DNA from: a virus
Lineage: Duplodnaviria > Heunggongvirae > Uroviricota > Caudoviricetes
Reading direction: 5' to 3' (one strand)
IMG/VR virus record: IMGVR_UViG_3300009095_001812
Coordinates: 56,990-120,989 of that record
DNA length: 64,000 nt
Shown one piece after another: positions 18,201 through 55,531 of this stretch. Positions within the stretch are counted from its first letter, which is position 1. Each line of letters opens with the position of its first letter. The notes beneath the pieces were generated by a model. The model was not told where the DNA came from and did not search any database. It saw nothing but the letters and a program-made list of their open reading frames with translations. The translations under genes were made by a program, and so were the position numbers.

Positions 18201-19069
18201 AGACGGCTGGTGTTATTGGTGTGCTCGGATCAAAACGCCAGAACGAGTGTTTTTGGCCAACCTACAAAGCAAAAAACGCCGGGGTTGATCATGACTTGAT
18301 TGTGGTAAATAGGGGGATGGTCGGTGTTCCCGAGAGCGCTTCATCTCAATCCGGAGATACTATCTTCGAGGATAAAATGAAGCTTGTTGATGGCGGAGAG
18401 CTTCCTTATAAAGCGTTTGGCGCTTATAGATACTTTGGACTCAAGTATGCAGATCGGTATGAGTACTTAGCTTTCGTTTCTGATGATGTTTTGTTTCAGG
18501 TAGATGGATGGTTATTGGAAGCTATAGAAATGCTTTCAAAGTTTGACAAGCTTGGGGTTGTTGGAACTCAGATATTTAACGGTGAACGTGGAGAGTACCC
18601 ACATCCATCTCATATAAGAGCGCCTATTTGGTTTGCAAAGACATCTGCGCTCAAGAAACTAAACTGGGAGTTTAGTTCCGATCATGACGGGGAGATGACT
18701 CTAGCTCCAACGTTCCTTAGAGCTGGGTATTTTGCAGCCCAAGTTGGGAACAAGATTGACATAGCTTATGACGCCCTAGAAGCGGGTCAGTTCGGGATAG
18801 GAGATCATATCTCCGCTATATTTTCAAAGGAAATTTCTTTTGATATCAATAGAAGAAATGAAATAAATAAAACCTTGTTTGGTAAGTTGATAGATGGTGA
18901 AGATGTTGATTTAGTAACATCACCATACAAACATATAGGTAAAAGAAAAGTGGTTTCTCAAATTCAACCATTCAATGGTCTTGTTATAGATACAGGGTTA
19001 GATTTGGCGAATGGTTATTATAATTCATTCAATTTTAATATTCATATACTAAAAGGTTACTGTGATTAA
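18197..19069 (+). CDS. Hypothetical protein, possible GT-A fold
   Basis: FVSDDVLF followed by GWLL...LGVVG, typical of GT2-like proteins. Confidence 0.5.
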   Translation: MKTAGVIGVLGSKRQNECFWPTYKAKNAGVDHDLIVVNRGMVGVPESASSQSGDTIFEDKMKLVDGGELPYKAFGAYRYFGLKYADRYEYLAFVSDDVLFQVDGWLLEAIEMLSKFDKLGVVGTQIFNGERGEYPHPSHIRAPIWFAKTSALKKLNWEFSSDHDGEMTLAPTFLRAGYFAAQVGNKIDIAYDALEAGQFGIGDHISAIFSKEISFDINRRNEINKTLFGKLIDGEDVDLVTSPYKHIGKRKVVSQIQPFNGLVIDTGLDLANGYYNSFNFNIHILKGYCD

Positions 19070-20816
19070 TATTGTTATACCAATGGCTGGGCGTGGAAGT
19101 AGATTTGCACAAGCTGGATATACTTTTCCAAAACCACTAATCGATGTAGAAAACAAACCAATGATTCAAGTTGTTGTTGACAACATTGGAATTCAAGCGA
19201 GATACATTTTTTTAGTTCTAAAAGAACATTATGACGCCTATGCGCTGAAGTATCTTCTTCCTTTAATTTGTGGAAAGAACCCTTGTGAAATTGTTATTGT
19301 AGATCAGGTGACGGAGGGAGCTGCTTGCACAGTTTTACTATCTGAAAAACTCATCAACAACGATGATGAATTGATTCTCGCAAACTCAGATCAATGGATC
19401 AATTGGGACAACGACCACTTCTTGAATTTCATGCGCTCAAAGAAAGCGGATGGTGGAATTGTAACATTCAACGCTTGTTTTAGTTATAAAACTTTAATTG
19501 ATACAAAAGAATTTGGAAAAATACCATTAGGAAAAATAGTAAATCAAAAAATTGATTGTTCTGTAATGTCATACAGTGAATCAAAAAAAATGTTTGAATA
19601 TTCAAAGGTAAAAGATTTTATTAAAATTCCAGGAAAAGATCTGCAATGGAAAAAAATTGTAACACCATGGAAAAATACAACATATGTTACTTCTGATCAT
19701 TTGTTCTTAACAGAAAATGATTCCTGGCACGATATTGCATCTATGGATAATAGAAAAATTTTAACAAATCATAATGTAATGTCTAAAATGCAGCGTGAAG
19801 TATTTGATGGAACAATGCTTGGAGACGGTTCTATTTCAATTGCAAGAGGGCGTGTTAATTCTGGTTTGAAATTTTCTCATTCTTTAAAACAAAGAAGATG
19901 GGCTGAATTTAAACTAGGTACTTTTAGTAGCTTAGGAACAAACTCTGATATTGTTAAAATTGGAAAGTATGATGCAATTGCGTGCCGTGTAAATATTAAT
20001 GAAGAGTTTAAAAATGAAAGGATTAGATGGTATCCTAATGATAAAAAATCTATTCCAAATGATTTAAAGTTAACACCACGAACTATAGCTGTTTGGTATA
20101 TGGATGATGGTGGTTTAACAACAAATAAAACACAAACTCCAAGATTTGCTACAAATTCATTCACGCTAAGAGATATAGAGTTTTTACAAGAAAAATTCAA
20201 TGAATTGAACATATCAACATATACTGTAAGAGATAATAATCAATATAGGCTTATCGTATCCGCTGAAAGTGAATCTATTATATTCAATATGATTAAAGAG
20301 TATATTTTACCTGAAATGCAATATAAATTACCGGAAAAATATCGTGGTTTTTTTGACTCTTCATTATATGCTCTCGATAATTGTGATTTTTATTATTCAT
20401 CGGTTAATGTATCAGATTATGATGAGTTGAAAGCTGATAATAAATATGCTTTTTGTATTCAAACAGAAAATGAAAATTTTATTGTAGATAATTTAGTGGC
20501 GCATAATTGCCACCCTAAATGGTCTTTTGCAAAGGTCGATGAAGACGGTTTGGTAACTGAAGTGGCGGAGAAGAAGCCTATATCAAATATTGCAACTGTT
20601 GGTGTTTACTATTTTAGTAAAGGAAAGTTCTTTGTTGATGGTGCAAAGCAAATGATTTCAAAAAATATTAGAACCAACAATGAGTTCTATGTATGTCCAG
20701 TGTTCAATGAACTAATTGGTGATGGAAAGAAAGTATTGAATTATCCAATTGCTGAAATGAAAGGTTTGGGAACTCCAGAAGACCTTGATAAATTTCTAAA
20801 GGATAAAGTTGTATGA
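19062..20816 (+). CDS. Sugar-phosphate nucleotidyltransferase containing an intein
   Basis: IVIPMAGRGSRF...PKPLI, GAACT, ANSDQ, HPKWSF, ATVGVYYF and LGTPEDL motifs. Confidence 0.9.
   Translation: MINIVIPMAGRGSRFAQAGYTFPKPLIDVENKPMIQVVVDNIGIQARYIFLVLKEHYDAYALKYLLPLICGKNPCEIVIVDQVTEGAACTVLLSEKLINNDDELILANSDQWINWDNDHFLNFMRSKKADGGIVTFNACFSYKTLIDTKEFGKIPLGKIVNQKIDCSVMSYSESKKMFEYSKVKDFIKIPGKDLQWKKIVTPWKNTTYVTSDHLFLTENDSWHDIASMDNRKILTNHNVMSKMQREVFDGTMLGDGSISIARGRVNSGLKFSHSLKQRRWAEFKLGTFSSLGTNSDIVKIGKYDAIACRVNINEEFKNERIRWYPNDKKSIPNDLKLTPRTIAVWYMDDGGLTTNKTQTPRFATNSFTLRDIEFLQEKFNELNISTYTVRDNNQYRLIVSAESESIIFNMIKEYILPEMQYKLPEKYRGFFDSSLYALDNCDFYYSSVNVSDYDELKADNKYAFCIQTENENFIVDNLVAHNCHPKWSFAKVDEDGLVTEVAEKKPISNIATVGVYYFSKGKFFVDGAKQMISKNIRTNNEFYVCPVFNELIGDGKKVLNYPIAEMKGLGTPEDLDKFLKDKVV
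19476..20507 (+). mobile_element. Intein with LAGLIDADG endonuclease (344 aa) in nucleotidyltransferase
   Basis: FNA/CFSY ... NLVAHN/CHPKW junctions; GTMLGDGS and WYMDDG endonuclease blocks. Confidence 0.9.
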
Positions 20817-26065: not shown

Positions 26066-26454
26066 TGCCTGAAGATTTTAAACTAAATATAAAAGCTTAT
26101 ATTCGCTCATATTCTAGTGGTCCAAGTGGATCTGTTATTGAGCTTGTTTCCTCTGGAAAACACCTTGAATTTATAGATCCAAATCCTTATTATGATAGGC
26201 TGATAAGGCGAGATCAGTCTATCACATTGAAGAACTTCGATATTCATAACTTAGCAGAGCGTTATAATCAAGGTATTATAGATGTAGATATATCTATACC
26301 AATATTTACAGATTGTGAGTTGAAGAAAAGCAGGTTAAAATCTGAAATACGAGATATAGAAAAGAGACTAGAAAAGTTATCTCCAATGAAAAACGAGATA
26401 GCAGCATTAGAATCTAAACTAAAAGAAATAAAAGAGGATTGTAGTGGGAACTGA
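26065..26454 (+). CDS. Hypothetical protein with C-terminal coiled coil
   Basis: Tiled ORF with overlaps on both sides. Confidence 0.5.
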   Translation: MPEDFKLNIKAYIRSYSSGPSGSVIELVSSGKHLEFIDPNPYYDRLIRRDQSITLKNFDIHNLAERYNQGIIDVDISIPIFTDCELKKSRLKSEIRDIEKRLEKLSPMKNEIAALESKLKEIKEDCSGN

Positions 26455-27826
26455 AACTAAAACAGAAAGTGTAGAGAGAGAGGTTGTTGTAGATGACATG
26501 GATACGAAACCTCAGGTTGATGAAGATAAATTGGCTAAATTGAAAGCGCGAGCTGCGCAGAAAAGAGCCGAAGAAGAAGCTGCAAAACAAGAAGTTGTTC
26601 AGGAGGAAGAGATGCCACCACGTATAGTTGAAGATCGTAAAAGATCGCTTCGATTTGGAGTGATTGGTTCTGGCCAAGCTGGTTCACGTTTGGCTGAGCA
26701 ATTTGCTGAGATTGGGTATCCAGCTATTGTTTTGAATACCGCCCCACAGGATTTAGAAGATATCAAAGTACCAGAACAGAATAAATTGTTACTTGATTTT
26801 GGATTGGGCGGAGCGGGTAAAGATTTGAGTATCGGCTATGACGCTGCTGACGCTTACAGAGCGGCTATCAATCAGCTTGTGCAGACAAAACTTGGAGATG
26901 CTCAGGTATTTATCTTTTGCACTTCTTTGGGCGGCGGCTCTGGCGCTGGTTCTGTTGAGGTTGTTGTTGACATCCTTGCGCAGATTGGAAAGCCAGTTGT
27001 TGTTCTAACAGTGCTTCCAAAAGCATCCGAAGACGCTCAGCTCAAACACAATGCTTGGCAGACTCTCTCGAAATTCACAAAGATGTTCAATGAAGGAAAG
27101 ATTGATAACATCATTACGGTGGACAACGCTAAGATTGAATCTCTGTATTCTGATGTTGGTCCATTTAACTTCTTTAAAGTTTCTAACAAGGCAATTGTTA
27201 GTCCCCTTGATGTATTCAATACCATGTCCAGGCGTAAGGACGAAGGTCTAAAGGTTTTAGACTCCACTGAATTTGGCAAGCTCTTTATCGATGGTAAAGG
27301 CTTTACAGTATACGGTGAGATGTCTGTAGAAGACTATGAGGACGAGATGGCAATTGCTACCGCAATTGTAGAATCCTTGAAAGGTAATTTACTCGCATCT
27401 GGTTTTGATATTCGCCAGGCACGCTATGCTGGTTTTATGCTTGTAGCTCCAAAGGAAGTTTGGGACAAGGTCTCAAGTGTGAGTTTGGATTACGCACAGA
27501 GGATGATCAACGACGCTTGTGATTCGCCAATGGCAATCTTCCAAGGTGTTTACCCAGAAGAGAATGGAGAGGATTGTGTGAAGGTGTACTCTATGTTCTC
27601 TGGTTTAGGTTTGCCTGAAGAGCGTATTGATCAGCTCAAAACCGAAGCTCAGATGAAGATGGCTAACGCCGAGCGTAAGGACAACGAACGTAAGCTTCAT
27701 ATGAAAGTCGATGTTGGTAATGAAACGGTGAATAAGGTTGATGAGATTAAGAAGAAGATTGAGTCCAGAAAGTCCTCGTTCAACAAGTTGCATGGCGGAG
27801 CTGTTCAGGACCGGAGAAAGAAATGA
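26444..27826 (+). CDS. Tubulin/FtsZ-family GTPase (phage TubZ/PhuZ-like)
   Basis: GVIGSGQAGSR, LNT..QDL, GAGKD, SLGGGSGAG signature, VLP and VDN motifs; charged N- and C-terminal extensions. Confidence 0.85.
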   Translation: MGTETKTESVEREVVVDDMDTKPQVDEDKLAKLKARAAQKRAEEEAAKQEVVQEEEMPPRIVEDRKRSLRFGVIGSGQAGSRLAEQFAEIGYPAIVLNTAPQDLEDIKVPEQNKLLLDFGLGGAGKDLSIGYDAADAYRAAINQLVQTKLGDAQVFIFCTSLGGGSGAGSVEVVVDILAQIGKPVVVLTVLPKASEDAQLKHNAWQTLSKFTKMFNEGKIDNIITVDNAKIESLYSDVGPFNFFKVSNKAIVSPLDVFNTMSRRKDEGLKVLDSTEFGKLFIDGKGFTVYGEMSVEDYEDEMAIATAIVESLKGNLLASGFDIRQARYAGFMLVAPKEVWDKVSSVSLDYAQRMINDACDSPMAIFQGVYPEENGEDCVKVYSMFSGLGLPEERIDQLKTEAQMKMANAERKDNERKLHMKVDVGNETVNKVDEIKKKIESRKSSFNKLHGGAVQDRRKK

Positions 27827-28486: not shown

Positions 28487-31258
28487 ATGACCTCGATCAT
28501 AAGGTTTGATAATTCGTGTAAAATTGTAGATGAAGACGAAGACGTACTCAGGCTCCTAGATAAAGAGCTTTCCTTCAGAATCGAAGGAGCCGAGTTCTCT
28601 GCGGCGTTTCAGGGTTATGTCAATGATGCCGGTGAATTCGTAACATGGGATGGAAGAAGACACCTTCTAACAAGTACAGGGAAATTTCCTGTAGGTTTAC
28701 TTCCAAGAGTACAGGAATTCTTCGCAAGAAGAAATCAATACATAGATATTATCGACCAGAGAACAGATAAAGGAAAACCAACACCTATAGATATCTCTGG
28801 TAATCTAAATAGCCTGGGTATGACTGTTAGGCCATATCAGGAGCTTGCTGCGAACACAGCTGTCAAAACAGATCGTGGAGTGATTCGATTAGCAACTGGT
28901 GGTGGTAAGTGCGAATCAATTGATTCGTTGCATATCACAGAGGATGGGCTTCTTGATTATGAAGAAATGCTAAATGGTGTTAAGCTAAATGATGGGGATG
29001 TTATTGAATATAAAAAATCTATTAGTACCTCACCTAAATTTGGAGGTAAAGATGAAACTTCTATGATTTATAGAGATGGATATGGCCCATCCAGAAAGAT
29101 AACTACATCATTTGGCTACACTCAAACTGCTACACCAAATCATAAAATACAAGTAATTTCACAAAATGGATTTGTTGAGTGGAAAAAATTCAAAGATCTC
29201 AAAGAAGGAGATTATGCTGCTATTTCATATGGCAATATGATGTTTGGTAAAAATGATATGCCTTTAGATGAGGCATATTGGTATGGTTTGTTATTTGGTG
29301 ATGGTTCTTTAACACTTGATCATTCTATTAGTTTTACAAGTATGGACACTCACTTACTAGATTTTTCTAAAAATTATCTGGTAAAAATTGGTCTAAAATT
29401 TAGTGAGTATGATACTAAAAGTAAAGCTAAAGACATTAAAGTTTATAGTAAAGAGTACAGAGATCGTTTAATTTTACTTGGTTTAAAAAAAGAAAAATCA
29501 ACAACTAAAACAATTCCACGTTCAATTAGAAGTTTACAAAAAGAACCTTTAAAAATGTTTTTAAGAGGACTTTTCGAAACGGATGGATGGGTTGGTAAAG
29601 AAAAGTCAAAACCTGTTGTTTGTATAGGGCTTTCAAATAAAAAAGCTATAGATCAATTACATCTTATACTTCTTAATTTTGGAATAATATCGTCTAGGCG
29701 AGTGAAAAAAACTACCCATGAGGATAGTCATATATTAACAATATACAGAAGTCATCTGGATTGTTTTATTGAAAGAATTGGATTTGATCCAAAGGGTAGA
29801 AAATATAAAGAGCTTAATGATGGTGTAGCTAATTTACCAAAACAAAACTCAAATATCTTTATACCTTATCTTTCAAAAAGATTAAAAATAATAACTGACA
29901 GAATAACTAGTGATGACAGGGAAAATTGTCCAATACCCTGGAATACTGTTCGGTCTTGGATAGGCGATTCTTCTTGGAGAAACCCTACAAAAGAAAATTT
30001 AGTTAAGTTTTTATATTGGGTTGAATCTAGTTCAATATTGTTAAGATCAGAAGCTCAGCATATACTTAATGATATTGATTGTGTATTTTTTGATAAAATA
30101 TCAAAAATTATAGAAACAATAACTGACAATTATGATTTTGTTGTTCCAAAAACTCATTCGTTTGTTTCTCAAGGTTTTGTAAATCATAATACGCTCATTG
30201 CTGCTTTGATTGCCGCAAAGCTTGGCAAGCCAACAATCATCTATGTAATTGGTCGTGACTTGCTTTATCAGCTTCAGAAGTTTTTCAAAAATATATTCGA
30301 TCAAGAAATAGGTATCATCGGAGATGGCAAGTGTGAAATTAAAGATATAAACATCGCAACTGTTTGGAGTGTTGGTCAGGCACTTGGTTTGAAGAAAAAT
30401 GCATCTCTGGATGATTCATCAGATAAGGAAAAGAATCTTGATCCGGAGAAGTTTCGGAAGGTCAAAGAAATGCTCTTGAACACTTCAGTCCACATCATGG
30501 ACGAATGTCATCTTGCAGCGTGCGATACCGTTCAAACGATCTCTCGCCACATCAAAGCTGAGTACGTCTACGGAATGTCTGCATCTCCATGGCGCGATGA
30601 TGGAGCAGACATGCTTATTGAGGCGTTCCTGGGGCCACGAATCATTGATATTTCAGCTCGCGAACTGATCAGTTCAGGATATCTTGTAGAGCCAGATATT
30701 CGTTTCCTTGCACCTACTCCTTACAAGTTCAAGTCAGGACAATATCAAAAAGTATATTCGAAGTACATCGTTGAAAACGAGCAACGAAACGGAATGATTG
30801 TGAAAGGAACTCTCAAGATGGTCGAGCAAGGCTTCGTACCATTGGTGTTGTTCCACACCATAAAACATGGCGATACTCTCTATGACCAATTGAAGAAACA
30901 TACTTCAGTTGCACTTCTGAGTGGAAAAGATAATTCCAACGTTCGAGAAAAGATAAAAGATCAGTTAGAAGAGGGGAAGATAAAGTGTATCGTTGCAAGT
31001 AAGATTTTTGATATTGGAATTGATCTTCCAATTTTATCAGGTCTTGTTATTGCGGGGGCGGGAAAGAGTTCGGTAAGAGCGCTTCAAAGGATTGGTAGGG
31101 TTATCAGGCCTTATAAAAACAAGAGCTTATCTGCCGTTCTCGACTTTGCCGATCAGGCACCTCATCTATTTGATCATGCAGAAGTTCGCCGCAAAATATA
31201 TGAGTCGGAGTTTAATGTAAAATGGCCGCTAAAAGGAAATGGACAGACGAACAGTTAA
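28487..31258 (+). CDS. Superfamily 2 DNA helicase (UvsW/Rad25-like) containing an intein
   Basis: RPYQ, ATGGGK/T, DECH, GMSASPWRDDG, IFDIGIDLP and QRIGRVIR motifs. Confidence 0.9.
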   Translation: MTSIIRFDNSCKIVDEDEDVLRLLDKELSFRIEGAEFSAAFQGYVNDAGEFVTWDGRRHLLTSTGKFPVGLLPRVQEFFARRNQYIDIIDQRTDKGKPTPIDISGNLNSLGMTVRPYQELAANTAVKTDRGVIRLATGGGKCESIDSLHITEDGLLDYEEMLNGVKLNDGDVIEYKKSISTSPKFGGKDETSMIYRDGYGPSRKITTSFGYTQTATPNHKIQVISQNGFVEWKKFKDLKEGDYAAISYGNMMFGKNDMPLDEAYWYGLLFGDGSLTLDHSISFTSMDTHLLDFSKNYLVKIGLKFSEYDTKSKAKDIKVYSKEYRDRLILLGLKKEKSTTKTIPRSIRSLQKEPLKMFLRGLFETDGWVGKEKSKPVVCIGLSNKKAIDQLHLILLNFGIISSRRVKKTTHEDSHILTIYRSHLDCFIERIGFDPKGRKYKELNDGVANLPKQNSNIFIPYLSKRLKIITDRITSDDRENCPIPWNTVRSWIGDSSWRNPTKENLVKFLYWVESSSILLRSEAQHILNDIDCVFFDKISKIIETITDNYDFVVPKTHSFVSQGFVNHNTLIAALIAAKLGKPTIIYVIGRDLLYQLQKFFKNIFDQEIGIIGDGKCEIKDINIATVWSVGQALGLKKNASLDDSSDKEKNLDPEKFRKVKEMLLNTSVHIMDECHLAACDTVQTISRHIKAEYVYGMSASPWRDDGADMLIEAFLGPRIIDISARELISSGYLVEPDIRFLAPTPYKFKSGQYQKVYSKYIVENEQRNGMIVKGTLKMVEQGFVPLVLFHTIKHGDTLYDQLKKHTSVALLSGKDNSNVREKIKDQLEEGKIKCIVASKIFDIGIDLPILSGLVIAGAGKSSVRALQRIGRVIRPYKNKSLSAVLDFADQAPHLFDHAEVRRKIYESEFNVKWPLKGNGQTNS
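28910..30190 (+). mobile_element. Intein with LAGLIDADG endonuclease (427 aa) in helicase Walker A
   Basis: GGGK/CESI ... GFVNHN/TLI junctions; YGLLFGDG and LRGLFETDG blocks. Confidence 0.92.
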
Positions 31259-34698: not shown

Positions 34699-34959
34699 AT
34701 GCCAACTTATGAACATCTATGTAAATCATGTAAACACGAATGGAGTCAGGCCTATAGTATTCATGTAGACCCTCCAACTCAATGTCCTGAATGTAAAGAA
34801 GAAGGACATGTTCAAAGATTAATATCAAAGCCTGGTAGTGTTAGGGTAGAACTTCATGGTCGAGAACTTGTAGAAAAACTCTGGAAAGAAGGAAAGGATC
34901 TTGCTCGTAAAGCTCGCACAGATGAAAATGTTGCAGCGGATTTATACGGACATAAATAA
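34699..34959 (+). CDS. FmdB-family zinc-ribbon protein
   Basis: MPTYE..C..C...CP.C...RLIS motif. Confidence 0.8.
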   Translation: MPTYEHLCKSCKHEWSQAYSIHVDPPTQCPECKEEGHVQRLISKPGSVRVELHGRELVEKLWKEGKDLARKARTDENVAADLYGHK

Positions 34960-34975
34960 CCTTTATAGGAGAGTT

Positions 34976-35632
34976 TTGAAAAAAGAAGATGAAGTACAAG
35001 AAATAAACAATTTGTTAAACAAATTGGTAGACCTTCGTAGGAAGTGTTCTAAATCTAAGAGCAAGAAATTGCATAAAGAGTTTGATGACATGCAAGCTGT
35101 TTGTGCAAAGAGATTAGATTATTTAGTAGAGGCAAGAACTAGAAAATACAAAGGATTTTCTAACTATGACGATCTGAAGCAAGATGGAAGATTGGCATTG
35201 TATCTTGCCTTACAATCTTATGAGCCAGAAAAAGGTGACTTTTTTTGGTGGGCCAATAAGTACATAAAAACAAAGATTAGTCGAGAGGCCAATCGACATT
35301 CCACTATTAAAATACCACTCAAGCACACTAAGCACGTCACACCTTACAAAGTATCTCAGTTACCTGTAATTGTTGATAATACTCCTGACGCTTTTGATAC
35401 AATCAACAAGGATGAATCTTCTTGTATTGTACGATCTGCTGTAAGTAGATTACCAGATAATCAGCGTAGGGTAATAGAATTACATTACGAGATGAATCTT
35501 AGTAACCGCCGGGAATCTTTCTCAATTGGTAAGATTTGCGATAGGTTGAATATCTCACGCGGAAGTTGTGTGAAGCTGCTCAATGAGGCTAAGAAAACAT
35601 TGAAACAAGAGTTATCTGAATTAGGAATTTGA
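34976..35632 (+). CDS. Sigma-70 family RNA polymerase sigma factor
   Basis: Region 2 DDLKQDGRLAL..ALQSYEPEKG.F..WA; region 4 LPDNQRRVIELHY...HTH; probable TTG start after AGGAG. Confidence 0.8.
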   Translation: MKKEDEVQEINNLLNKLVDLRRKCSKSKSKKLHKEFDDMQAVCAKRLDYLVEARTRKYKGFSNYDDLKQDGRLALYLALQSYEPEKGDFFWWANKYIKTKISREANRHSTIKIPLKHTKHVTPYKVSQLPVIVDNTPDAFDTINKDESSCIVRSAVSRLPDNQRRVIELHYEMNLSNRRESFSIGKICDRLNISRGSCVKLLNEAKKTLKQELSELGI

Positions 35633-35634
35633 AT

Positions 35635-38600
35635 ATGACAATTAAGGATGTTGAACGCCAGGGAATATCTGATGAAGTTTGGGAACAAAACTATAAATCT
35701 CCAAAAGACCAATCATTAGATGATACTTGGACCAGACAAGCAAAAGCTTGTTCAAGTGTTGAAGAAAAATCTATAAGACAACAAGTTTATGAAGATTTCA
35801 AATGGCTTTTAACTGATTTCAAAGGAATTGCTGGTGGTCGTATTACAGCAAACCTTGGAGTGGAGGGTAGAGAGGCTACCACACTCATGAATTGTTTTTT
35901 GCCAGGTACAAAAGTACTAACTGTAAATGGTTATGTATCAATTGAAAATATTTGTGTAGGAGATAAGGTACTTACACATACTGGTAATTGGCAAAGTGTT
36001 CATAATACTTTGTCAAGGTATTATGAAGGCGAAGTTGATTCTTACAAATCAAGTTTGCTAAATAATACTGTTGTTTGTACTACTAATCATGAATTTTATC
36101 AAGGAAATAATGAATGGACAAAATCTCATAATAATAAAATTCTTGCACTACCATTTGTAGAAGATTGTGGTGAATATTTTACAATTGATATTCAAAGTTA
36201 TTTAGATGAAAATATAATACATAATAAACTTGGTACGTATTTGGTACAAATAAAAAATGATGATGATAAAGTTTGGCATGAAAAAGATTTTATAGGTGGT
36301 AATGGAGCCAGAGGGACAAAATCTTCTGTACCTATAAATAAAAAATTTCGTTTAGACGAAGATGCCGCTTATCTTTTTGGTAGATTTATTGGAGACGGAT
36401 CTGTTTATTCAACACAAGGAAATGAGGTTATTAATGGTGTGAATATAGTATTTTCAGATCTTGAAAAAGATCATATGAAAAAATGTAATTCAATAATAGA
36501 AAATACATTTGGAATTTCATTTAATGAAAATATGGGTGATTCTTTTCATTATTTACGAAAAGCAAATATTGTGCTGGCAAGTTTTTTTGCGTCTGTTTGC
36601 GGGATTGGTGTTGATAAAAAACGTGTTCCTTCTTTTATCATGGAATCAAAAGAGTCTGTACGAAAATCCTTCTTACTTGGACTTCTTGACTCTGATGGTA
36701 TGGTTGGAAAAAATGGAGTTATAAAACTAACACTTTCTAATGAGAGTTTGATTGATGATGTTAAGTTTCTATTTAATTCTATAGGTTTAATTCCAAGAAA
36801 AAATGCTGCATATGTATCTCATGTCGAAAATGCAAAACCAGCATGGGTTTTGCAAGTAAGCGCATCGCAAAGCCAATCAATATTCTCAGATCTTTTAAAG
36901 GTTTATGCTGATGATAGGCTTTCGCAGAGTTTTGGATCTAAAAATAAATTCCATAAATATGGAAAGAACTTTATATCTTCTGATTTTGAAAAATCAACAT
37001 ATTCTTACAAAGGAATGGTTTATAACATATCTGTAAATAAAGATGAGAGTTATGTTGTAGAGGGAGTTGTTGTTCATAATTGTTTCGTTCATAACCCTTC
37101 GGACATTGGGTACGCAGACTCTGACTCTATTCATGGTATCTACAAGATGCTTGAATGTCAGGCTCAAACACTCAAGTCCGAGGGTGGTTATGGAATGAAT
37201 TTCTCATGGATTCGTCCTAATGGTTCGTACGTTGCCGGCATTGATTCTAGAACACCAGGCGTTCTAAACTTCATGGAGCTTTGGGATACATCTTCAAAAA
37301 TCATTACCATGGGCTCAGAGAAAGTTCTTGGTGAAAAGCGTCCAAACGAAAAGAAGAAAATTCGCAAAGGTGCTCAAATGGGTATTTTGGATTGCTGGCA
37401 TCCTGAAATTGAAGATTTCATTGAGGCAAAACTCGTAGAGGGTCGTCTATCCAAGTTCAATATCTCTGTTGGTATCACCGAAGGCTTCATGGAGGCTGTA
37501 CTCAATGATACAGACTGGGACTTGAAATTCCCTGATACAGAATGTAAAGAATACAAGAAACAATGGTTTGGTAATATCTACGACTGGGAAGCAAAAGGTC
37601 TTCCTGTTATTGTTCACAAAACCATCAGAGCAAAAGATCTTTGGACAAAGATTACAAAGTCTACATATACCAGAAACGATCCTGGTGTTTTGTTCTTCGA
37701 TCATATAAATAAGATGAATCCTCTGTACTATGCAGAGCGCATCGCTACAACAAATCCATGCTTTGCAGGATCTGAAAGGTTTTTAACAGAAACAGGATAC
37801 ATTCGATTTGATGAAAGCTCTCAACCGGCAAATATTTTGGTTGATGGTAGAATCTCTTATCATGATGATGGACCAGAGAAGCCTGATAATTGGAAAATAT
37901 CCAACGAATATTGTGGTACAGTTGTAAGAGAAGCAAGTTCTGCGTTTATTACCAAAGAATATTCTGATTTGCTATTATTAGAGTTTTCTAATGGACAAAC
38001 TCTTAAGTGTACTCCGGATCATCACATAGCTACTTCTGATGGTATGGTTGAGGCGCAGTATCTAACCCCTGAACATGAGATTTTAGTACCTAGAACAACA
38101 CCTCCTGTTTCAAGTATTTTCGGAAGCATTCCAAAATCTAAAAATGAAAAAGCTTCATTTCTTATGGGGCTTATTACAGGAGATGGTTGTATTCATAAAA
38201 ATACAGCTCATATAGATTTATGGGGTGATGATCGTGATAGGATGAAAAATATTTGTTGTGAGATTATCGATTCTTTACATGATGATTCTCCGGACTTGGT
38301 TGAAAAACCAAAAAATTGGAAAAACAGACAACTTTCGAAATATTACATATCAGAATCTGATAATAAAATAAGAATATCTTCGACATGGCTTAAGTATTTC
38401 CTGGAACAAATTTATGCATTTGATAAACGCGATGTTCCTGAGTTTGTAATTCAAAACGCAAGAACAAGTTCTGGACAGTTTTATTTAGCTGGTTTTTATT
38501 ACGCAGACGGAACTGTTTCTAAAAATAAACAAAAGGGAATATCTGTAAGATTAGCTCAAAGCAATAAAGAAATTCTTAGAAGCGTTCAGCTTATTTGTCA

Positions 38601-40509
38601 CGCAAATGGTATTTTGACATCAATATATAAACGGAGAGATGCTGGATTTTCTACATTTAAAACTGGAACATATGAACATAAAAAACAATATGAACTTATT
38701 ACAACTCATGGTTCATGGAAGGAATTTTGTTCTATCGGTTTTGCTGGACATCCAAATAAAGATTCTGTTTTGCTTTCATTGAAAAATGAGGTAATTAAAA
38801 ATTACCAAAAAAACAGTTATACCAATTTGGTTTCTATTGAACAAATTGAAGGTGATACTGTTTATTGTTTGAAAGAGCATGTATCAAGGGCATTGACCGT
38901 AAACGGCATTGCCGCTCGTAGATGTGGTGAGATCTCAATGTCTACTGGTGTTTGCTTGTTATTCTCTTTGAACCTTGTGAAGTTCATCAAGAAATCCGGT
39001 GGTAATTTTGTTTTTGACTACGATGAGTTCAAGAAGGCGGTAAAGATTGCTACTCGTTTTGCGGATAACATCAATGACATTTCCCGTGTTCCACTAGATG
39101 CGTATAAGAATTCCATGCAAGAAAAGCGCCGTCTTGGTATTGGTGTTCTTTCATTGGGTTCTTTGCACTACTGTTTAGGAATTCGTTTTGGATCCGAAGA
39201 GTCTCAGCAGCTTATTAGGGATATTTTCAAAGCAAAAGCTGAAACAGAGATTTTAACATCAGCAGAGCTTGGAGCAGAGAAGGGCTCTTTTAAGCTCTTT
39301 GATAAAGAAAAATATTTTAACTCTCATTGGTGGAAGACTCTTCCGATTTCAAAATTTGTCAAGAAGAAAGTTGAAGAAATTGGCGAGATGAGAAACTCTC
39401 ATCGTGCAGCCAATGCACCAACAGGAAATATGAGTATTTACTCGGGTGTTATGTCTGGTGGTATCGAACCAGTCTTTATGAAGGAGTATGCTCGCTGGGC
39501 TATTGTTCCTGAACGAGAACGCATGAATCTTAAAGAGGAAGGTTTTGAATTTCCCAACATTTTCTCTGGTGAGTGGTTTGAGACAAAGCACCTCAAAGCA
39601 TCCAAAGCTGGGGCTGATGATTGTTTGCTTGGAAAATTCAATGGTATTGATTACCAAGTAGACAAGAACCGTGGTCTTACAAAGAGAACTGTTGTACAGG
39701 ATTGGGGTTGGATGTTTGTTCAGGCAAATTATTCCGAAGAAGAAATTGCACAGATGGAAGCTCGGGGTGTTTTCGTTACTACAGAAGATTTAAGTGTTGA
39801 AGAGCATCTTAAGACACTTGAAATCATTGCTCCGTTTGTAGATCAAAATTCTTCTAAGACCATAAATGTCCCTAATGATTATTCTTATGAGAAGTTTGAG
39901 AGTGTATATTTAGATGCGTGGAAAGCTGGTATTAAAGGAATCACAACCTATCGTGCCGGTACAATGACAGCTGTTCTTGAAGCTGTAGATAAATCAACGG
40001 AATCTGTTGGAAAGGCGTCTGCACCGAAGAGACCAAAAGAACTTCCTTGTGAACTTCATAGAACAAAGATCAAGGGTAAAGAATGGGCTGTTGTTGTTGG
40101 TTTGTATAACGGTAAACCATATGAGGTTTTTGCCGGTCCTATTAGTGGTATCGAGTTCCCACAAAAGGGATTTGGACAATTGGTCAAAAAGAAAAAAGGT
40201 CAATACTCGCTTATAATGCCTGATATGACAATTGATAATATCGTTGACTATATCAATGATGAGGATTCTGCCTGGGCAACAAGAATGATTTCCATGTCTA
40301 TGAGACACGGAATTCCATTGGAGTTTATATACGACCAGCTATCAAAAGACGGAACAGTCGTAGATGTAAACAATATTCTGGCAAGAATACTAAAGAAATA
40401 CATCAATCTCTCTGGTAAACTAAAGTGCCCTCAGTGCGGATCTGAGAGTGTTGTTCTTGAACAGGCATGCATGAAGTGCCTCCAGTGTAATTTTGGAAAA
40501 TGTGGATAA
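35635..40509 (+). CDS. nrdJ: Class II (adenosylcobalamin-dependent) ribonucleotide reductase with two inteins
   Basis: AGGRI, LMN/C, RKGAQM, FNISV, TNP/CGEI, RRLGIG, APTG, GIEP and KGITTYR motifs; C-terminal TSCPD-like and Zn-ribbon domains. Confidence 0.9.
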   Translation: MTIKDVERQGISDEVWEQNYKSPKDQSLDDTWTRQAKACSSVEEKSIRQQVYEDFKWLLTDFKGIAGGRITANLGVEGREATTLMNCFLPGTKVLTVNGYVSIENICVGDKVLTHTGNWQSVHNTLSRYYEGEVDSYKSSLLNNTVVCTTNHEFYQGNNEWTKSHNNKILALPFVEDCGEYFTIDIQSYLDENIIHNKLGTYLVQIKNDDDKVWHEKDFIGGNGARGTKSSVPINKKFRLDEDAAYLFGRFIGDGSVYSTQGNEVINGVNIVFSDLEKDHMKKCNSIIENTFGISFNENMGDSFHYLRKANIVLASFFASVCGIGVDKKRVPSFIMESKESVRKSFLLGLLDSDGMVGKNGVIKLTLSNESLIDDVKFLFNSIGLIPRKNAAYVSHVENAKPAWVLQVSASQSQSIFSDLLKVYADDRLSQSFGSKNKFHKYGKNFISSDFEKSTYSYKGMVYNISVNKDESYVVEGVVVHNCFVHNPSDIGYADSDSIHGIYKMLECQAQTLKSEGGYGMNFSWIRPNGSYVAGIDSRTPGVLNFMELWDTSSKIITMGSEKVLGEKRPNEKKKIRKGAQMGILDCWHPEIEDFIEAKLVEGRLSKFNISVGITEGFMEAVLNDTDWDLKFPDTECKEYKKQWFGNIYDWEAKGLPVIVHKTIRAKDLWTKITKSTYTRNDPGVLFFDHINKMNPLYYAERIATTNPCFAGSERFLTETGYIRFDESSQPANILVDGRISYHDDGPEKPDNWKISNEYCGTVVREASSAFITKEYSDLLLLEFSNGQTLKCTPDHHIATSDGMVEAQYLTPEHEILVPRTTPPVSSIFGSIPKSKNEKASFLMGLITGDGCIHKNTAHIDLWGDDRDRMKNICCEIIDSLHDDSPDLVEKPKNWKNRQLSKYYISESDNKIRISSTWLKYFLEQIYAFDKRDVPEFVIQNARTSSGQFYLAGFYYADGTVSKNKQKGISVRLAQSNKEILRSVQLICHANGILTSIYKRRDAGFSTFKTGTYEHKKQYELITTHGSWKEFCSIGFAGHPNKDSVLLSLKNEVIKNYQKNSYTNLVSIEQIEGDTVYCLKEHVSRALTVNGIAARRCGEISMSTGVCLLFSLNLVKFIKKSGGNFVFDYDEFKKAVKIATRFADNINDISRVPLDAYKNSMQEKRRLGIGVLSLGSLHYCLGIRFGSEESQQLIRDIFKAKAETEILTSAELGAEKGSFKLFDKEKYFNSHWWKTLPISKFVKKKVEEIGEMRNSHRAANAPTGNMSIYSGVMSGGIEPVFMKEYARWAIVPERERMNLKEEGFEFPNIFSGEWFETKHLKASKAGADDCLLGKFNGIDYQVDKNRGLTKRTVVQDWGWMFVQANYSEEEIAQMEARGVFVTTEDLSVEEHLKTLEIIAPFVDQNSSKTINVPNDYSYEKFESVYLDAWKAGIKGITTYRAGTMTAVLEAVDKSTESVGKASAPKRPKELPCELHRTKIKGKEWAVVVGLYNGKPYEVFAGPISGIEFPQKGFGQLVKKKKGQYSLIMPDMTIDNIVDYINDEDSAWATRMISMSMRHGIPLEFIYDQLSKDGTVVDVNNILARILKKYINLSGKLKCPQCGSESVVLEQACMKCLQCNFGKCG
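35893..37080 (+). mobile_element. RNR intein 1 with LAGLIDADG endonuclease (396 aa)
   Basis: TLMN/CFLPGT ... GVVVHN/CFV junctions; GRFIGDG and LLGLLDSDG blocks. Confidence 0.92.
37759..38922 (+). mobile_element. RNR intein 2 with LAGLIDADG endonuclease (388 aa) and non-canonical C-terminal Arg
   Basis: TTNP/CFAG ... TPDHHI block B ... LTVNGIAARR/CGEI; GLITGDG and LAGFYYADG blocks. Confidence 0.88.
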
Positions 40510-41138: not shown

Positions 41139-41809
41139 AGGTTGAAGAGTTAGCTGCGTTGGTAGCTGTAAGAAATCATATCTTTACAGTTATTAACGAC
41201 AAAAGCGTTACAGGAAGAGATGACTTTCGTCCTCTTGAAGCAAAGAGAAGAGAACTTGATCTCAAGTTTGTCCAAATTATAAAGGATACGGATGTTGAAG
41301 ATTTATTCACCAACGAAGTAACCGTGATCAAGGTGGGCGGAAATCCTTCAGCTCAAGATCTTGATTTTTGGCGACAAATATTTGAGCAGGCTAAGAACGA
41401 TTCTGATTTCAAGATCATTACACACGATGCCGTTGAAATTGAAAAGATTGATGCTTCGGATGTACAAGTTGTCTCAAAAGAAGATGATCAGTTGGTATTA
41501 TCTTTTTCAAATCCAATAGATGATTCTTCTTTAGAGAAAGAAATTCAAGAGAAGGTTGCAGAGGTTGCTCAGGGAAAAGTCGAGGAACTCGAAGAGAAAC
41601 TGGAAGAAGATGGAGTAACTCTTGAAAAGTCCGCAATTGCCCCTGATGCAAAGCTAGCTCTTGAGGAGAAAAAGAAGGCAGAGGCGGCAAAGAAGGCTTC
41701 GCTGGACCCAGATATTGCTGCGGCAATTCAAAGACAAAAAGAAGCCCTAAATAAAGAGGGTCGAAAGACAGCTAAGAAAGTGATTAAAGCAAATGGAACG
41801 ACGGGGTGA
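41135..41809 (+). CDS. Hypothetical acidic coiled-coil protein
   Basis: Tiled ORF with native codon usage. Confidence 0.6.
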   Translation: MKVEELAALVAVRNHIFTVINDKSVTGRDDFRPLEAKRRELDLKFVQIIKDTDVEDLFTNEVTVIKVGGNPSAQDLDFWRQIFEQAKNDSDFKIITHDAVEIEKIDASDVQVVSKEDDQLVLSFSNPIDDSSLEKEIQEKVAEVAQGKVEELEEKLEEDGVTLEKSAIAPDAKLALEEKKKAEAAKKASLDPDIAAAIQRQKEALNKEGRKTAKKVIKANGTTG

Positions 41810-42596
41810 TTTTGTTGTTTTGAAGGATGACCTCTGGATTAAGAGGCAGAAGCACGCAGGTCGTGTTGTTGCCAAATCACATCAAGAAATTTATCCAATG
41901 ATAAAGGGTATGTCTAAAGGACTAACCCTGAAACAAATTGGAGAGGTTGTAAATGAGGTTATCCAGAAGAATGACTGTACCCCTACATTCCTTGGTTACA
42001 ACGGCTTTCCAAGTGTTGTCTGTGCTTCAATCAATCATGAGCTGGTTCATGGATTTGCTCGTGATATAGAACTCCAACCCGGGGATGTGGTCAAGATAGA
42101 TATTGGAGCCACGTTCGAGGGGGCTATAGGGGATTGTGCTGTCACATATGTTTATGGAAAGCCAAAATCTGAGAAAATTCTTCAGATGCTTTTGGCATGT
42201 CAGGACTCTTTGAGAGATGCAATTGCTGTTGTGAAGCCCGGAAACCGTCTAGGTGAGATAGGAAAGGCAATTTGGGAAAAATCTAGAACCTCAGGGTTTG
42301 GAGTGATTACTGATTTTGGTGGTCATGGAATTGACTATCACAAACTCCATTCTCATCCTTTTGTAAAGAACAAAGGAAAGTCAGATGAGGGAATCGTCAT
42401 GGAGCCCGGGCTTTCAATTGCTATAGAACCAATGTTTGTTCTTGGTAAAAATACCAATACAAAATTGCTAAAAGATAAATGGACAGTCGTGACAAAAGAT
42501 ATTGGTTGCCACTATGAGCATTCCGTGACAATTGATAAAAACGGTCATACACATATCATGACCGATCATGATATAGATGTTAAAGATTTTGTGTAA
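41793..42596 (+). CDS. map: Type I methionine aminopeptidase
   Basis: FLGYNGFP..VCASIN...VHG, DVVKIDIG, GDCAVT, GHGI...H, EPM and HYEH metal-ligand motifs. Confidence 0.92.
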   Translation: MERRGDFVVLKDDLWIKRQKHAGRVVAKSHQEIYPMIKGMSKGLTLKQIGEVVNEVIQKNDCTPTFLGYNGFPSVVCASINHELVHGFARDIELQPGDVVKIDIGATFEGAIGDCAVTYVYGKPKSEKILQMLLACQDSLRDAIAVVKPGNRLGEIGKAIWEKSRTSGFGVITDFGGHGIDYHKLHSHPFVKNKGKSDEGIVMEPGLSIAIEPMFVLGKNTNTKLLKDKWTVVTKDIGCHYEHSVTIDKNGHTHIMTDHDIDVKDFV

Positions 42597-50360: not shown

Positions 50361-51875
50361 ATGGCGGCAGTTAAAGTAAAGACTGATAAATCTCCAACCA
50401 TTAAAAATTATCAAGTTCCAGCGGAGTGGGTCAAGGATCTAAACTTCTTTGACATGACTGGTTCTAAAGCTAAGACCAAAGGAACTTCAAACAAGTTCTA
50501 TCATATTGAGTTGCAAGAAGCCAATGATGGCAAATGTCAGCTTTATACAGAATACGGGCCCACGGGAACAGTACAGTGTCGTGAGTGGCGATATTTCGCT
50601 GATGATCGAGCCTCTGCGGAGAAAGAGTTCGAGCGCATCGTCAAGTCCAAGACCAAGAAAGGTTACGTCGTCATTGATGTAGCTCAGCGTGCCATCGGAT
50701 CTGCTGAAGCCCAAAAACATGTGAAGGCTGTTCAATTCAAGAATGCCGAAGTAATCGAAACCAAGATTTCCTCCCTAAACCATGCGCAGAAAAGCATCGT
50801 ATCTTTGTTCTTTGATGCGCAGGATACTTTCGTTGCTGAGACCCTAAAATGTCCATTGGGCCAGCTCTCTAATTCTCAAATTGATCTTGGACGAGAAGCA
50901 CTCGATAAAGCCAAGGTCATTGTGAACTCTGCAAAAAAACTTTCTGAAAAGAAGAAGGAAGAACTTGAAGTTCTCACAAATGAGTTCTACGGACTTATCC
51001 CACACAACCTTGGATCTGGAGCACGAGGACAACGAACAGATTTATTGTTGGACACCCTAGATAAGATTGTTGGTAAAGAATCCGATCTTGATACTTTGCT
51101 CGATGCAAAGCAAGTATCTTTGGTTCTCAAAGAAGACTCTACGGTTGATAACAAATACAAATCACTCAATTGTGATTTTGATGAGGTTGATTCCGCATCT
51201 CAGCTCTACCAATTTTTGGTAATGTATTTCAATGATACTAAGGTGAATGGCCACGGATATCAATCATCTAGAGTTTCTAAGATTTGGTCCATGCGAAGAA
51301 AAGATTCCAAGGAGGAATCTTTTCTTGGAAATGCTGAGCGTATTGCAAAGGATGCTGGCAATCATACATTCGCAACGGATACTTCATCTTTGTCAGGTGG
51401 CAAGTCCAAGCTTTGGACCCCAGATAAACGCCCAGACCTTACAAAAGAGCAAGTTGCTCTGTACAACAAAGCCAACGTTTGGCTTTCGTGGCACGGAACA
51501 AGGTCTGCAAACCTCGTTGGTATTACGCGCCGTGGGTTAATGATTCGTCCAGCTGGTGCTGTTCATACAGGTTCTTTATATGGAGATGGAAAATATTTTG
51601 CCTGGCAAAGTACCAAGTCTTTGAATTACTGTGACGGAGGTTATTGGACAGGGGGTCGTAAAAATAATAAAAAATATTTGTTTCTTTTGGATGTAGCATT
51701 TGGAAGAATGCATCAAGCATCGGGTGGTTTTTTCTATCAAAACCCACCAAAAGGATTTCATTCTGTTTATGCTAAAGCAAATAGGTCGGGGGTTCTTAAC
51801 GATGAAATGATTACTTATGATATTGAAGATAAAAACAACCAAAGCAGTATTAGATATCTTCTTGAGATTGTATAA
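50361..51875 (+). CDS. Poly(ADP-ribose) polymerase-like protein: WGR domain, regulatory helical domain, ART catalytic domain
   Basis: NKFYHIELQ...LYTEYGPTG (WGR-like); PLGQLS...LTNEFYGLIPH (regulatory domain); WHGT, LYGDGKYFA and NDEMITY (H-Y-E triad). Confidence 0.88.
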   Translation: MAAVKVKTDKSPTIKNYQVPAEWVKDLNFFDMTGSKAKTKGTSNKFYHIELQEANDGKCQLYTEYGPTGTVQCREWRYFADDRASAEKEFERIVKSKTKKGYVVIDVAQRAIGSAEAQKHVKAVQFKNAEVIETKISSLNHAQKSIVSLFFDAQDTFVAETLKCPLGQLSNSQIDLGREALDKAKVIVNSAKKLSEKKKEELEVLTNEFYGLIPHNLGSGARGQRTDLLLDTLDKIVGKESDLDTLLDAKQVSLVLKEDSTVDNKYKSLNCDFDEVDSASQLYQFLVMYFNDTKVNGHGYQSSRVSKIWSMRRKDSKEESFLGNAERIAKDAGNHTFATDTSSLSGGKSKLWTPDKRPDLTKEQVALYNKANVWLSWHGTRSANLVGITRRGLMIRPAGAVHTGSLYGDGKYFAWQSTKSLNYCDGGYWTGGRKNNKKYLFLLDVAFGRMHQASGGFFYQNPPKGFHSVYAKANRSGVLNDEMITYDIEDKNNQSSIRYLLEIV

Positions 51876-54061: not shown

Positions 54062-55531
54062 ATGTTGCTTGAATCTGTGAATGGATTAAAAACAACATCT
54101 AAGATCAATGTTTTAGTTAGATGTGATAATTGTGAAGATGAATATAGTATTCAATATAGATCTATTTACATGTCAAGAAACCGTAGAGGTTCTGAAAAGG
54201 ATTTTTGTATTAAATGTGCAAGAAAACTGGCGTCAATAAATAATCGGCGAGGAACTGTTCATGACTCAAATGGATATTCTTATATTCAAAAAGGAACTGA
54301 AAGAATTTTTTTGCATACCAAAGTAGTTGAAGAAAATCTCGGCAGATCTTTAACACAAACTGAAGTAGTTCATCATATAAATGGAGATAAAAAAGATAAT
54401 AATTTTGAGAATTTGCATGTTTTTGAAAATCAAAAACAACATATGCTTTCTCATAATTCTTTAGAAGAATTATCCTTTTATCTTGTAAAGAATAATTATA
54501 TAAAATTTGATTCAAATTCAGCTAGATATTATTTAAATAAATCTAATAATAACTTTGAAAAAAGTTATGGTTTTGAAAATATAGCTATAAAACAAAAAAA
54601 GAATATTTGCAAATCAAGGCTTGATACAAATATAAGATCTGAGTTTGTTAGGGGTATATTTTTGGACGTACCATTAGTTGCTGCTAATATGTCTACGGTT
54701 ATCAATTCAAGCTTCTATTTGAAATTATATGAACTTGGAGCTATTGGAATTTTGCATCGGGCTCAGTCTATAGAATCACTTATAAATGAAGTGAATGTAG
54801 TTAGTAATAAATGTCATATAGTTGCGGCGTCAATAGGGGTTGGTGATAGTTCTTTAGAAGATGCGAAATCTCTTATACAAAATAATTGTAATGTTTTATG
54901 TATAGATATTGCTCATGGATATTCAAATGAGACAATCGAATTGGCAAAAAAAATAAAACAGTACTCTCGAACGACAAAAATTATATTAGGTAATTCTGTA
55001 AATACTGATATTTTGTTAGAGTCTAACGATTATGTTGATGCCATTAAGGTTGGAATAGCTCAAGGGTTTGCTTGTGAAACTAAAAATACCGCTGGTTGCA
55101 CAGAAAAACAATTTTCGGCTGTTTTAAAATTTAAAGATTTGGCACACAAGCTCGGAATGCCAATAATATCAGATGGTGGCATTCGAGAGGCCGCAGATTT
55201 TACAAAAGCTATAGCCGCTGGTGCTTCAAGCGTTATGGCTGGTAAAATATTTGCAGAGTGTGAGGAATCTGCTGGTGAAATAGTGTCTCATAATGATTCT
55301 AATAAAAAACTTTATGCTGGAATGGCTTCTTCTTATGTACAAGAATCATGGAAGGGTGGTTTAAAATTAGGAACTTGTGCCGAAGGTGGAATTAGATACT
55401 TAGAAATATCCGGAAGTGTTAAAGACATGATTGAAAGATATTCTGGAGCTTTAAGATCTGGTATAACTTATGCTGGTGCAGTTGATATAAAATCATTTCA
55501 TAGCAACGTAGAATTTATTGAATTGATATAA
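54062..55531 (+). CDS. Fusion of Zn-finger/HNH endonuclease and CBS-less IMPDH/GMP reductase family enzyme
   Basis: VVHHINGDKKDN..ENL HNH motif; then PLVAANM, IDIAHG, KVGIAQGFACET (catalytic Cys loop), ISDGGI, VMAG, YAGMAS and LRSGITYAG from about 54563. Confidence 0.88.
   Translation: MLLESVNGLKTTSKINVLVRCDNCEDEYSIQYRSIYMSRNRRGSEKDFCIKCARKLASINNRRGTVHDSNGYSYIQKGTERIFLHTKVVEENLGRSLTQTEVVHHINGDKKDNNFENLHVFENQKQHMLSHNSLEELSFYLVKNNYIKFDSNSARYYLNKSNNNFEKSYGFENIAIKQKKNICKSRLDTNIRSEFVRGIFLDVPLVAANMSTVINSSFYLKLYELGAIGILHRAQSIESLINEVNVVSNKCHIVAASIGVGDSSLEDAKSLIQNNCNVLCIDIAHGYSNETIELAKKIKQYSRTTKIILGNSVNTDILLESNDYVDAIKVGIAQGFACETKNTAGCTEKQFSAVLKFKDLAHKLGMPIISDGGIREAADFTKAIAAGASSVMAGKIFAECEESAGEIVSHNDSNKKLYAGMASSYVQESWKGGLKLGTCAEGGIRYLEISGSVKDMIERYSGALRSGITYAGAVDIKSFHSNVEFIELI

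Follow-up and report, generated by a model that had tools for sequence, protein, structure and literature searches.

Arginine-ending inteins of phage ribonucleotide reductases probably finish protein splicing through a chemistry so far undescribed

The second of two inteins in the class II ribonucleotide reductase (RNR) of a jumbo phage ends in Arg-Arg in place of the usual His-Asn. We found that this intein (intein 2) is one member of a large phage-borne lineage of RNR inteins with Arg at the terminal position, a lineage that, judging from its sequences, is old, mobile and under selection. [quoted passage not shown] On balance, we favor the view that intein 2 is an active, mobile intein of class 1 build, in which the step-3 cleavage would depend on arginine. 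The window, that is, the whole 64-kb stretch of phage DNA that was analyzed, also encodes the genes and other inteins to which we refer below, and coordinates are collected in Table 1.

The host protein of intein 2 leaves little doubt about where the intein begins and ends. Pfam detected the RNR barrel (PF02867) split by Hint and LAGLIDADG domains, and the best solved match of the protein was NrdJ of T. maritima (PDB 1XJE, E 3e-48). An ATG two codons into the open reading frame (35635) is a possible true start of the gene. In the alignment with 1XJE, the N-side ends at query residue 711 (Cys1), which falls on the radical Cys322 and is preceded by TNP; the C-side begins at query residue 1099 (Cys+1), which falls on Cys322 again and is followed by GEI. 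Since residues 711 and 1099 both map to Cys322, intein 2 lies exactly between Pro and the thiyl-radical Cys, and its removal restores precisely the NPCGE radical loop that marks the protein as a member of the NrdJ group. The same boundary match means that no extein residue is lost or gained and that the final intein residue is Arg1098 of the precursor, Arg388 of the intein. The full junctions read TTNP/CFAGSERFL...TVNGIAARR/CGEIS, and the codons at the C-terminal end are GCC GCT CGT AGA before TGT GGT GAG. The original prediction, made from the letters of the window, had proposed both the Arg-Arg/Cys ending and the identity of the +1 Cys with the thiyl-radical Cys; codons and the 1XJE alignment agree with it on both points. 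Its end coordinate of 38925 needs correction, as it takes in the codon of the +1 Cys and the intein proper spans 37759-38922.

Two further features of the RNR locus can be mentioned here. Directly 5' of the RNR gene, with a 4-base overlap, lies a gene for a sigma-70-like factor (34901-35632), in which regions 2 and 4 were recognized with weak scores. At its C-terminus, the RNR has a Cys-rich tail (40420-40506; CPQCGS...CMKCLQCNFGKCG); relatives have kept this tail, whose presumed role is that of a zinc or redox shuttle.

Table 1. Positions in the window of the RNR gene, its inteins and their motifs, and of the other inteins and the peptidase gene discussed in the text
Feature	Position	Strand	Remarks
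Class II (B12-dependent, NrdJ-type) RNR gene	35629..40509	+	1626 codons, two inteins; PF02867 E 2e-95
RNR intein 1	35893..37080	+	aa 89-484, before NCF cysteine; LMN/CFLPGTK...VVHN/CFVHN; LAGLIDADG, canonical His-Asn/Cys
RNR intein 2	37759..38922	+	aa 711-1098, 388 aa; Hint splicing domain and LAGLIDADG endonuclease, Arg-Arg end
Cys1, N-terminal nucleophile	37759..37761	+	Invariant in 44/44 close and 72/72 Arg-ending members
Block B TPDH	38011..38022	+	Thr85 and His88 invariant, 44/44 sequences
LAGLIDADG motif 1, LMGLITGDG	38161..38187	+	Asp142 at least 90% conserved
LAGLIDADG motif 2, LAGFYYADG	38485..38511	+	Asp250 at least 90% conserved
Block F:4, Cys370 (VYC)	38866..38868	+	Cys in 72/72 Arg-ending inteins
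Arg377 (AGG), block F His position	38887..38889	+	Switches together with terminal residue
Arg387-Arg388 (CGT AGA), penultimate and terminal	38917..38922	+	Replacing His-Asn
+1 Cys, thiyl-radical Cys of NPCGE	38923..38925	+	Aligns to Cys322, T. maritima NrdJ
Intein in UvsW-like helicase	28487-31258		LAGLIDADG; NHN/T end
Intein in ThyX thymidylate synthase	55942-58140		LAGLIDADG; VHN/C end
Intein in sugar nucleotidyltransferase	19062-20816		LAGLIDADG; AHN/C end
M24 metallopeptidase (methionine-aminopeptidase-like)	41793-42596		PF00557 E 4e-36; 1.3 kb 3' of RNR

As the original prediction had it, Cys1, the block B TPDH motif and an intact LAGLIDADG endonuclease are all present in intein 2. The endonuclease is of the double-motif type (PF14528, E 7.5e-17), and both motifs keep their catalytic acidic residue. 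Pfam Intein_splicing gave 28.3 bits for intein 2 alone (cut-off 35.8) and 41.8 bits for the whole two-intein protein. The AlphaFold2 model, based on a 41-sequence alignment, has a mean pLDDT of 91.5 and a pTM of 0.91. The best Foldseek matches of this model are the solved inteins TliVMA (7QSU), PI-SceI (1EF0, 1VDE) and PI-PfuI (1DQ3), the last of which is a Pyrococcus RNR intein (E 3e-17 to 2e-13, probability 1.00). The similarity is confined to structure, as sequence identity is 10-14%, and, unlike intein 2, all three end in His-Asn. According to the model, intein 2 is an ordinary intein in its architecture.

The departure from the ordinary is concentrated in the residues of step 3. Intein 2 has Cys1, the block B Thr-x-x-His, the +1 Cys and the Hint fold that are expected of a class 1 intein. 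However, where such an intein has a cyclizable terminal residue, Asn or rarely Gln or Asp, it has Arg388 (AGA), and where the penultimate and block F His are expected, it has Arg387 and Arg377. According to the review by Mills, Johnson and Perler (PMC4031507), step 3 is carried out by Asn G:7 with the assistance of His F:13 and His G:6, and Asp and Gln are the only natural substitutes named for the terminal Asn. We took position 377 to be F:13 because it is located seven residues past F:4, where canonical relatives most often carry His. The arrangement of the three arginines is one that we infer by homology.

A word-indexed search with the intein region detected 44 RNRs that carry a homologous intein at the same site, and in this first set the terminal residue is Arg in 41 inteins, Asn in two and Gln in one. 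An exhaustive phmmer search over 1.84 billion representatives produced 1201 matches (E <= 0.001), and the best 150 of them together with the first set made up the family HMM alignment. Of 178 related RNR-site inteins, 72 end in Arg. The sequences aligned at both ends comprise these 72, another 48 that end in Asn or Gln and have Cys at F:4, and 45 that end in Asn or Gln and have Asp at F:4. The search for homologous RNR inteins ending in RR/C, which the original prediction had suggested, was thus productive, in that the penultimate residue is Arg in 65 of the 72 Arg-enders (A, T, V, S or Q in the other seven). Their terminal residue is never Lys. Position 377 is occupied by Arg in 70 of them and by Lys in two, compared with Arg or Lys in just two of 106 Asn/Gln-enders. 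In other words, the block F His has given way to Arg or Lys, the penultimate His mostly to Arg, and the terminal Asn to Arg. For comparison, a penultimate His is absent from about 5% of active inteins.

The sequence context at +1 varies in the lineage, which is found in RNRs of the CGE, CAE, CVE, CFE, CHE, CYE and CSE types. Because these RNR types are many, the lineage is probably distributed over many hosts. A locus search with intein 2 alone as the query returned no related loci. A search for genome contigs returned only two metagenome-assembled contigs. As for F:4, Cys at this position (VYC) is common family-wide and pairs with a non-His penultimate residue (G, S, A or R). Asp at F:4 pairs mostly with His-Asn in the RNR-site family alignment, His-Asn being the commonest ending of the 45-member group.

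We constructed a tree of the 178 inteins from an alignment in which the trait columns were left out. The tree unites all 72 Arg-enders in a single clade, which comprises 79 rows, has an SH-like support of 97 and end branches of 0.1-1.6 changes per site, and has diverged down to about 30% identity. Four lineages with Asn or Gln at the end are nested within the Arg clade with starred support (P0008/P0010/P0048, P0054, P0038/P0056 and P0067), and all four carry His or Asn at position 377. No column conserved in Arg-enders other than 377 changes in all four nested lineages. Residue 377 and the terminal residue switched together in five out of five phylogenetically independent pairs, all in one direction (p 0.06, which is the floor for five pairs). 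The C-terminal site therefore looks like one that is held in two self-consistent settings, His or Asn at 377 with Asn or Gln at the end, and Arg or Lys at 377 with Arg at the end. Inteins appear to cross between the two settings, as expected if each of them works, and the fact that 377 switches with the terminal residue implies function in both states. Exchanges between Asn and Gln are frequent across the family tree (about 22 each way), so the site already admits six-membered ring closure.

Among known systems, class 1 inteins that end in a residue other than Asn offer a close precedent. Gln is found at the end of the Chilo iridescent virus RNR intein and of the Pol II inteins of Pyrococcus abyssi and Methanoculleus marisnigri, and Asp-ending class 1 inteins are known as well (PMC4031507). 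These inteins share with intein 2 the Cys1, the block B TxxH, the +1 nucleophile and the replacement of the terminal Asn. The presumed step 3 of these inteins is still the cyclization of a side chain, which for Gln yields a six-membered ring, and Gln is also the terminal residue of many close relatives that share the RNR site of intein 2. What sets intein 2 apart is that its terminal group is a cationic guanidinium rather than an amide or a carboxylate, and that Arg also takes the place of His in block F and at the penultimate position.

No Arg-ender was present in cultured phages, as judged by tblastn against 50,697 phage records, and the relatives that we checked there end in GN, GQ or MN. 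The bnrdE intein of Bacillus phage SPbeta (SPBc2) resembles intein 2 in being inserted into the RNR large subunit at the same point, immediately ahead of the radical Cys, and in having a LAGLIDADG endonuclease. Together with the corresponding inteins of Staphylococcus SPbeta-like, Rheinheimera Barba, Brochothrix A9 and Corynebacterium C3PO phages, it forms a set that is about 24% identical to intein 2 over the whole intein and likewise has a non-His penultimate residue. However, the endings of this set are Gly-Asn, Gly-Gln or Met-Asn, so that ordinary cyclization suffices for them.

The invariant Cys at F:4 of the Arg-ending lineage is also reminiscent of class 3 inteins. Class 3 inteins have a WCT motif (Trp B:12, Cys F:4 and Thr G:5), use the F:4 Cys as the first nucleophile and have no nucleophile at position 1. 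Unlike them, the Arg-ending lineage has Cys1, Ile at B:12 and a variable G:5 (A, T, V, S or M; Ala in intein 2), and class 3 inteins still end in Asn. We therefore rejected membership in class 3, of which the F:4 Cys is the only trait found here.

How might such an intein splice? The invariance of Cys1, the block B TxxH and Cys+1 suggests that steps 1, 2 and 4 proceed as in class 1 inteins. Step 3 would be an Arg-dependent cleavage of the Arg388-Cys bond, which would free the intein from the +1 Cys. The strict requirement for Arg at the terminus, the tolerance of Lys at 377 and the loose penultimate position argue for a direct role of the terminal guanidinium. The terminal Arg and residue 377 would in that case parallel Asn G:7 and His F:13. 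In the chemistry that we prefer, N-epsilon of the terminal Arg would attack its own backbone carbonyl and form a six-membered lactam, the same ring size as that of the glutarimide from Gln-ending relatives. The neighboring cationic residue of block F could lower the pKa of the guanidinium and stabilize the oxyanion. In peptide synthesis, activated arginine is well known to form a delta-lactam as a by-product. On the other hand, guanidinium has little nucleophilicity at physiological pH and, to our knowledge, Arg-mediated backbone cleavage has not been reported for any protein. The specific proposal that the terminal Arg is itself the step-3 nucleophile, closing a C-terminal six-membered lactam through N-epsilon with the assistance of the block F Arg or Lys, is put forward as tentative. 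Step 3 might alternatively consist of an N-to-S acyl shift at Cys+1 or of an Arg-assisted hydrolysis, and either would also free the Cys amine.

The first competing explanation is that intein 2 is dead with respect to splicing. It would then be a selfish element that spread by homing and inactivated the phage RNR, the phage would use the RNR of its host, and the exteins would still be intact owing to a recent invasion. This explanation does draw on several observations: there is no known chemistry for cleavage by a terminal Arg, the three step-3 residues were lost together, the endonuclease motifs are intact such that homing could drive the spread, phages can draw on dNTP synthesis by the host, and the genome record to which the window belongs is just 49% complete. 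Nevertheless, we regard it as unlikely. Cys1, Thr85, His88 and Arg388 have stayed invariant throughout a clade as diverged as this one, and the co-switching of 377 with the terminal residue is likewise difficult to reconcile with a dead element. To examine the terminal Arg at the DNA level, we searched viral and metagenomic contigs with a degenerate nucleotide pattern that describes the block F-G junction. The search detected 35 distinct genuine junctions, in which the terminal Arg is encoded by AGA (22), AGG (6), CGA (4), CGG (2) or CGT (1). Since five different Arg codons occur at this position, selection acts on the amino acid, which is maintained across synonymous codon changes.

The exteins also speak against a dead intein. 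In the comparison of loci L020 and L021, the sole pair near enough to escape saturation, dN/dS is 0.06 for the flanking exteins and 0.09 for the intein. This was the test for purifying selection that had been suggested along with the original prediction; neither reads giving His-Asn nor decay of the extein sequences, which it had named as contrary outcomes, turned up. Moreover, the endonuclease has been lost or degraded in five lineages (P0041, with an intein of 263 aa, P0036, P0043, P0039 and P0040), and copies without endonuclease cannot spread via homing. All of these copies nonetheless retain Arg-Arg and last in full-length RNR open reading frames.

Finally, two viral genomes rated 100% complete (G001, 163.6 kb; G002, 138.5 kb with terminal repeats) encode the RNR with the Arg-ending intein as their only RNR, and they lack NrdD. 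No further PF02867 match was found in G000-G005, and the phage's own record (208 kb, about 49% complete) contains no second RNR and no NrdD. We therefore rejected a complementing second RNR, on the strength of G000-G005 and with the own record covering only 49% of its genome. Conserved exteins are strong evidence of function but fall short of proof, given that a phage does not strictly need its RNR. The original prediction had left the choice between an alternative splicing chemistry and a dead intein with an inactive or trans-complemented RNR. The retained Arg, the signs of selection, the endonuclease-free copies and the sole RNR of complete genomes favor the former, and the latter fits them poorly.

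A second competing explanation retains splicing but assigns step 3 to outside help. After formation of the branched thioester, a protease of the host or the phage would cut behind Arg-Arg, and the ligation would be completed by the Cys amine released in this way. Arg-Arg does look like a dibasic protease site, and the M24 peptidase gene close to the RNR gene, which also adjoins the RNR in the related viral contig G004, would be a candidate. However, M24 enzymes are aminopeptidases and not endoproteases, and neither of the two complete Arg-ender genomes (G001 and G002) contains the gene, which led us to reject it as an obligate partner. The penultimate Arg of the presumed cleavage site is dispensable, as seen in the seven exceptions among 72, and a buried block F residue co-varies with the ending; both point to intramolecular chemistry. 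The occurrence of the lineage in many RNR types, and probably in many hosts, also speaks against outside help. We consider outside help improbable, somewhat more so than a dead intein.

We consider it very improbable that the ending is an artefact or a misreading, whether through an error in sequencing, a wrongly placed boundary, recoding of AGA or excision from the RNA, given that it recurs in 72 protein clusters and at 35 different junctions in DNA and that the open reading frame is under purifying selection and folds confidently into a Hint domain and an endonuclease. Most copies do have AGA or AGG as their last codon, and the first 15 loci all had AGR, but wider sampling added CGA, CGG and CGT, and recoding specific to AGA/AGG was rejected. 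An Asn is indeed present six residues upstream of the intein end (VN/G), but many members have S, Q, G, D, E or A there and 1XJE excludes this boundary, which was rejected as well. Removal at the RNA level was rejected because neither a group I/II intron nor any other Rfam match was found in the RNR gene. A single sequencing error had been discounted originally on the grounds that CGT and AGA differ from CAT and AAT at several positions. In fact, the differences amount to one base and two bases, respectively, and it is the 72 relatives that uphold the conclusion.

The surroundings of intein 2 are themselves of interest. Five inteins within 64 kb represent an unusually high density, and the remaining four are all canonical His-Asn enders. 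With four canonical neighbors, the coding or assembly of this phage is not what produces odd intein ends. The phage is a jumbo phage, and its window contains a tubulin/TubZ-like gene (26444-27826; PF00091 and a TubZ-like C domain). Jumbo phages that assemble a spindle or a nucleus-like compartment typically have such genes. A poly(ADP-ribose) polymerase-like protein (50361-51875), unusual for a phage, combines a WGR domain with the regulatory and the catalytic domain of PARP. The IMP dehydrogenase (54062-55531) has an in-frame N-terminal HNH endonuclease domain, and this fusion may be the remnant of an endonuclease insertion. A nucleotidyltransferase of the CCA-adding/poly(A) polymerase type with an HD domain is encoded on the minus strand (58301-59806), and ARAGORN found no tRNA genes in the window.

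We found no report of an Arg-ending intein in the full-text literature that can be searched without a subscription. Every splicing mechanism covered by the review cited above (PMC4031507) frees the intein by cyclization of a terminal Asn, Gln or Asp. A lineage of Arg-ending inteins under selection means either that this rule leaves out a further, new chemistry of self-cleavage, or that inteins can persist for long without splicing. [quoted passage not shown] A new chemistry, if true, might also provide protein engineering with a new type of cleavage module, one that responds differently to pH or redox conditions. Residue 377 and the terminal residue, which switch together, provide a precise two-residue hypothesis. 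Either answer would alter how inteins are recognized in genomes, where Arg-enders would otherwise be scored as dead.
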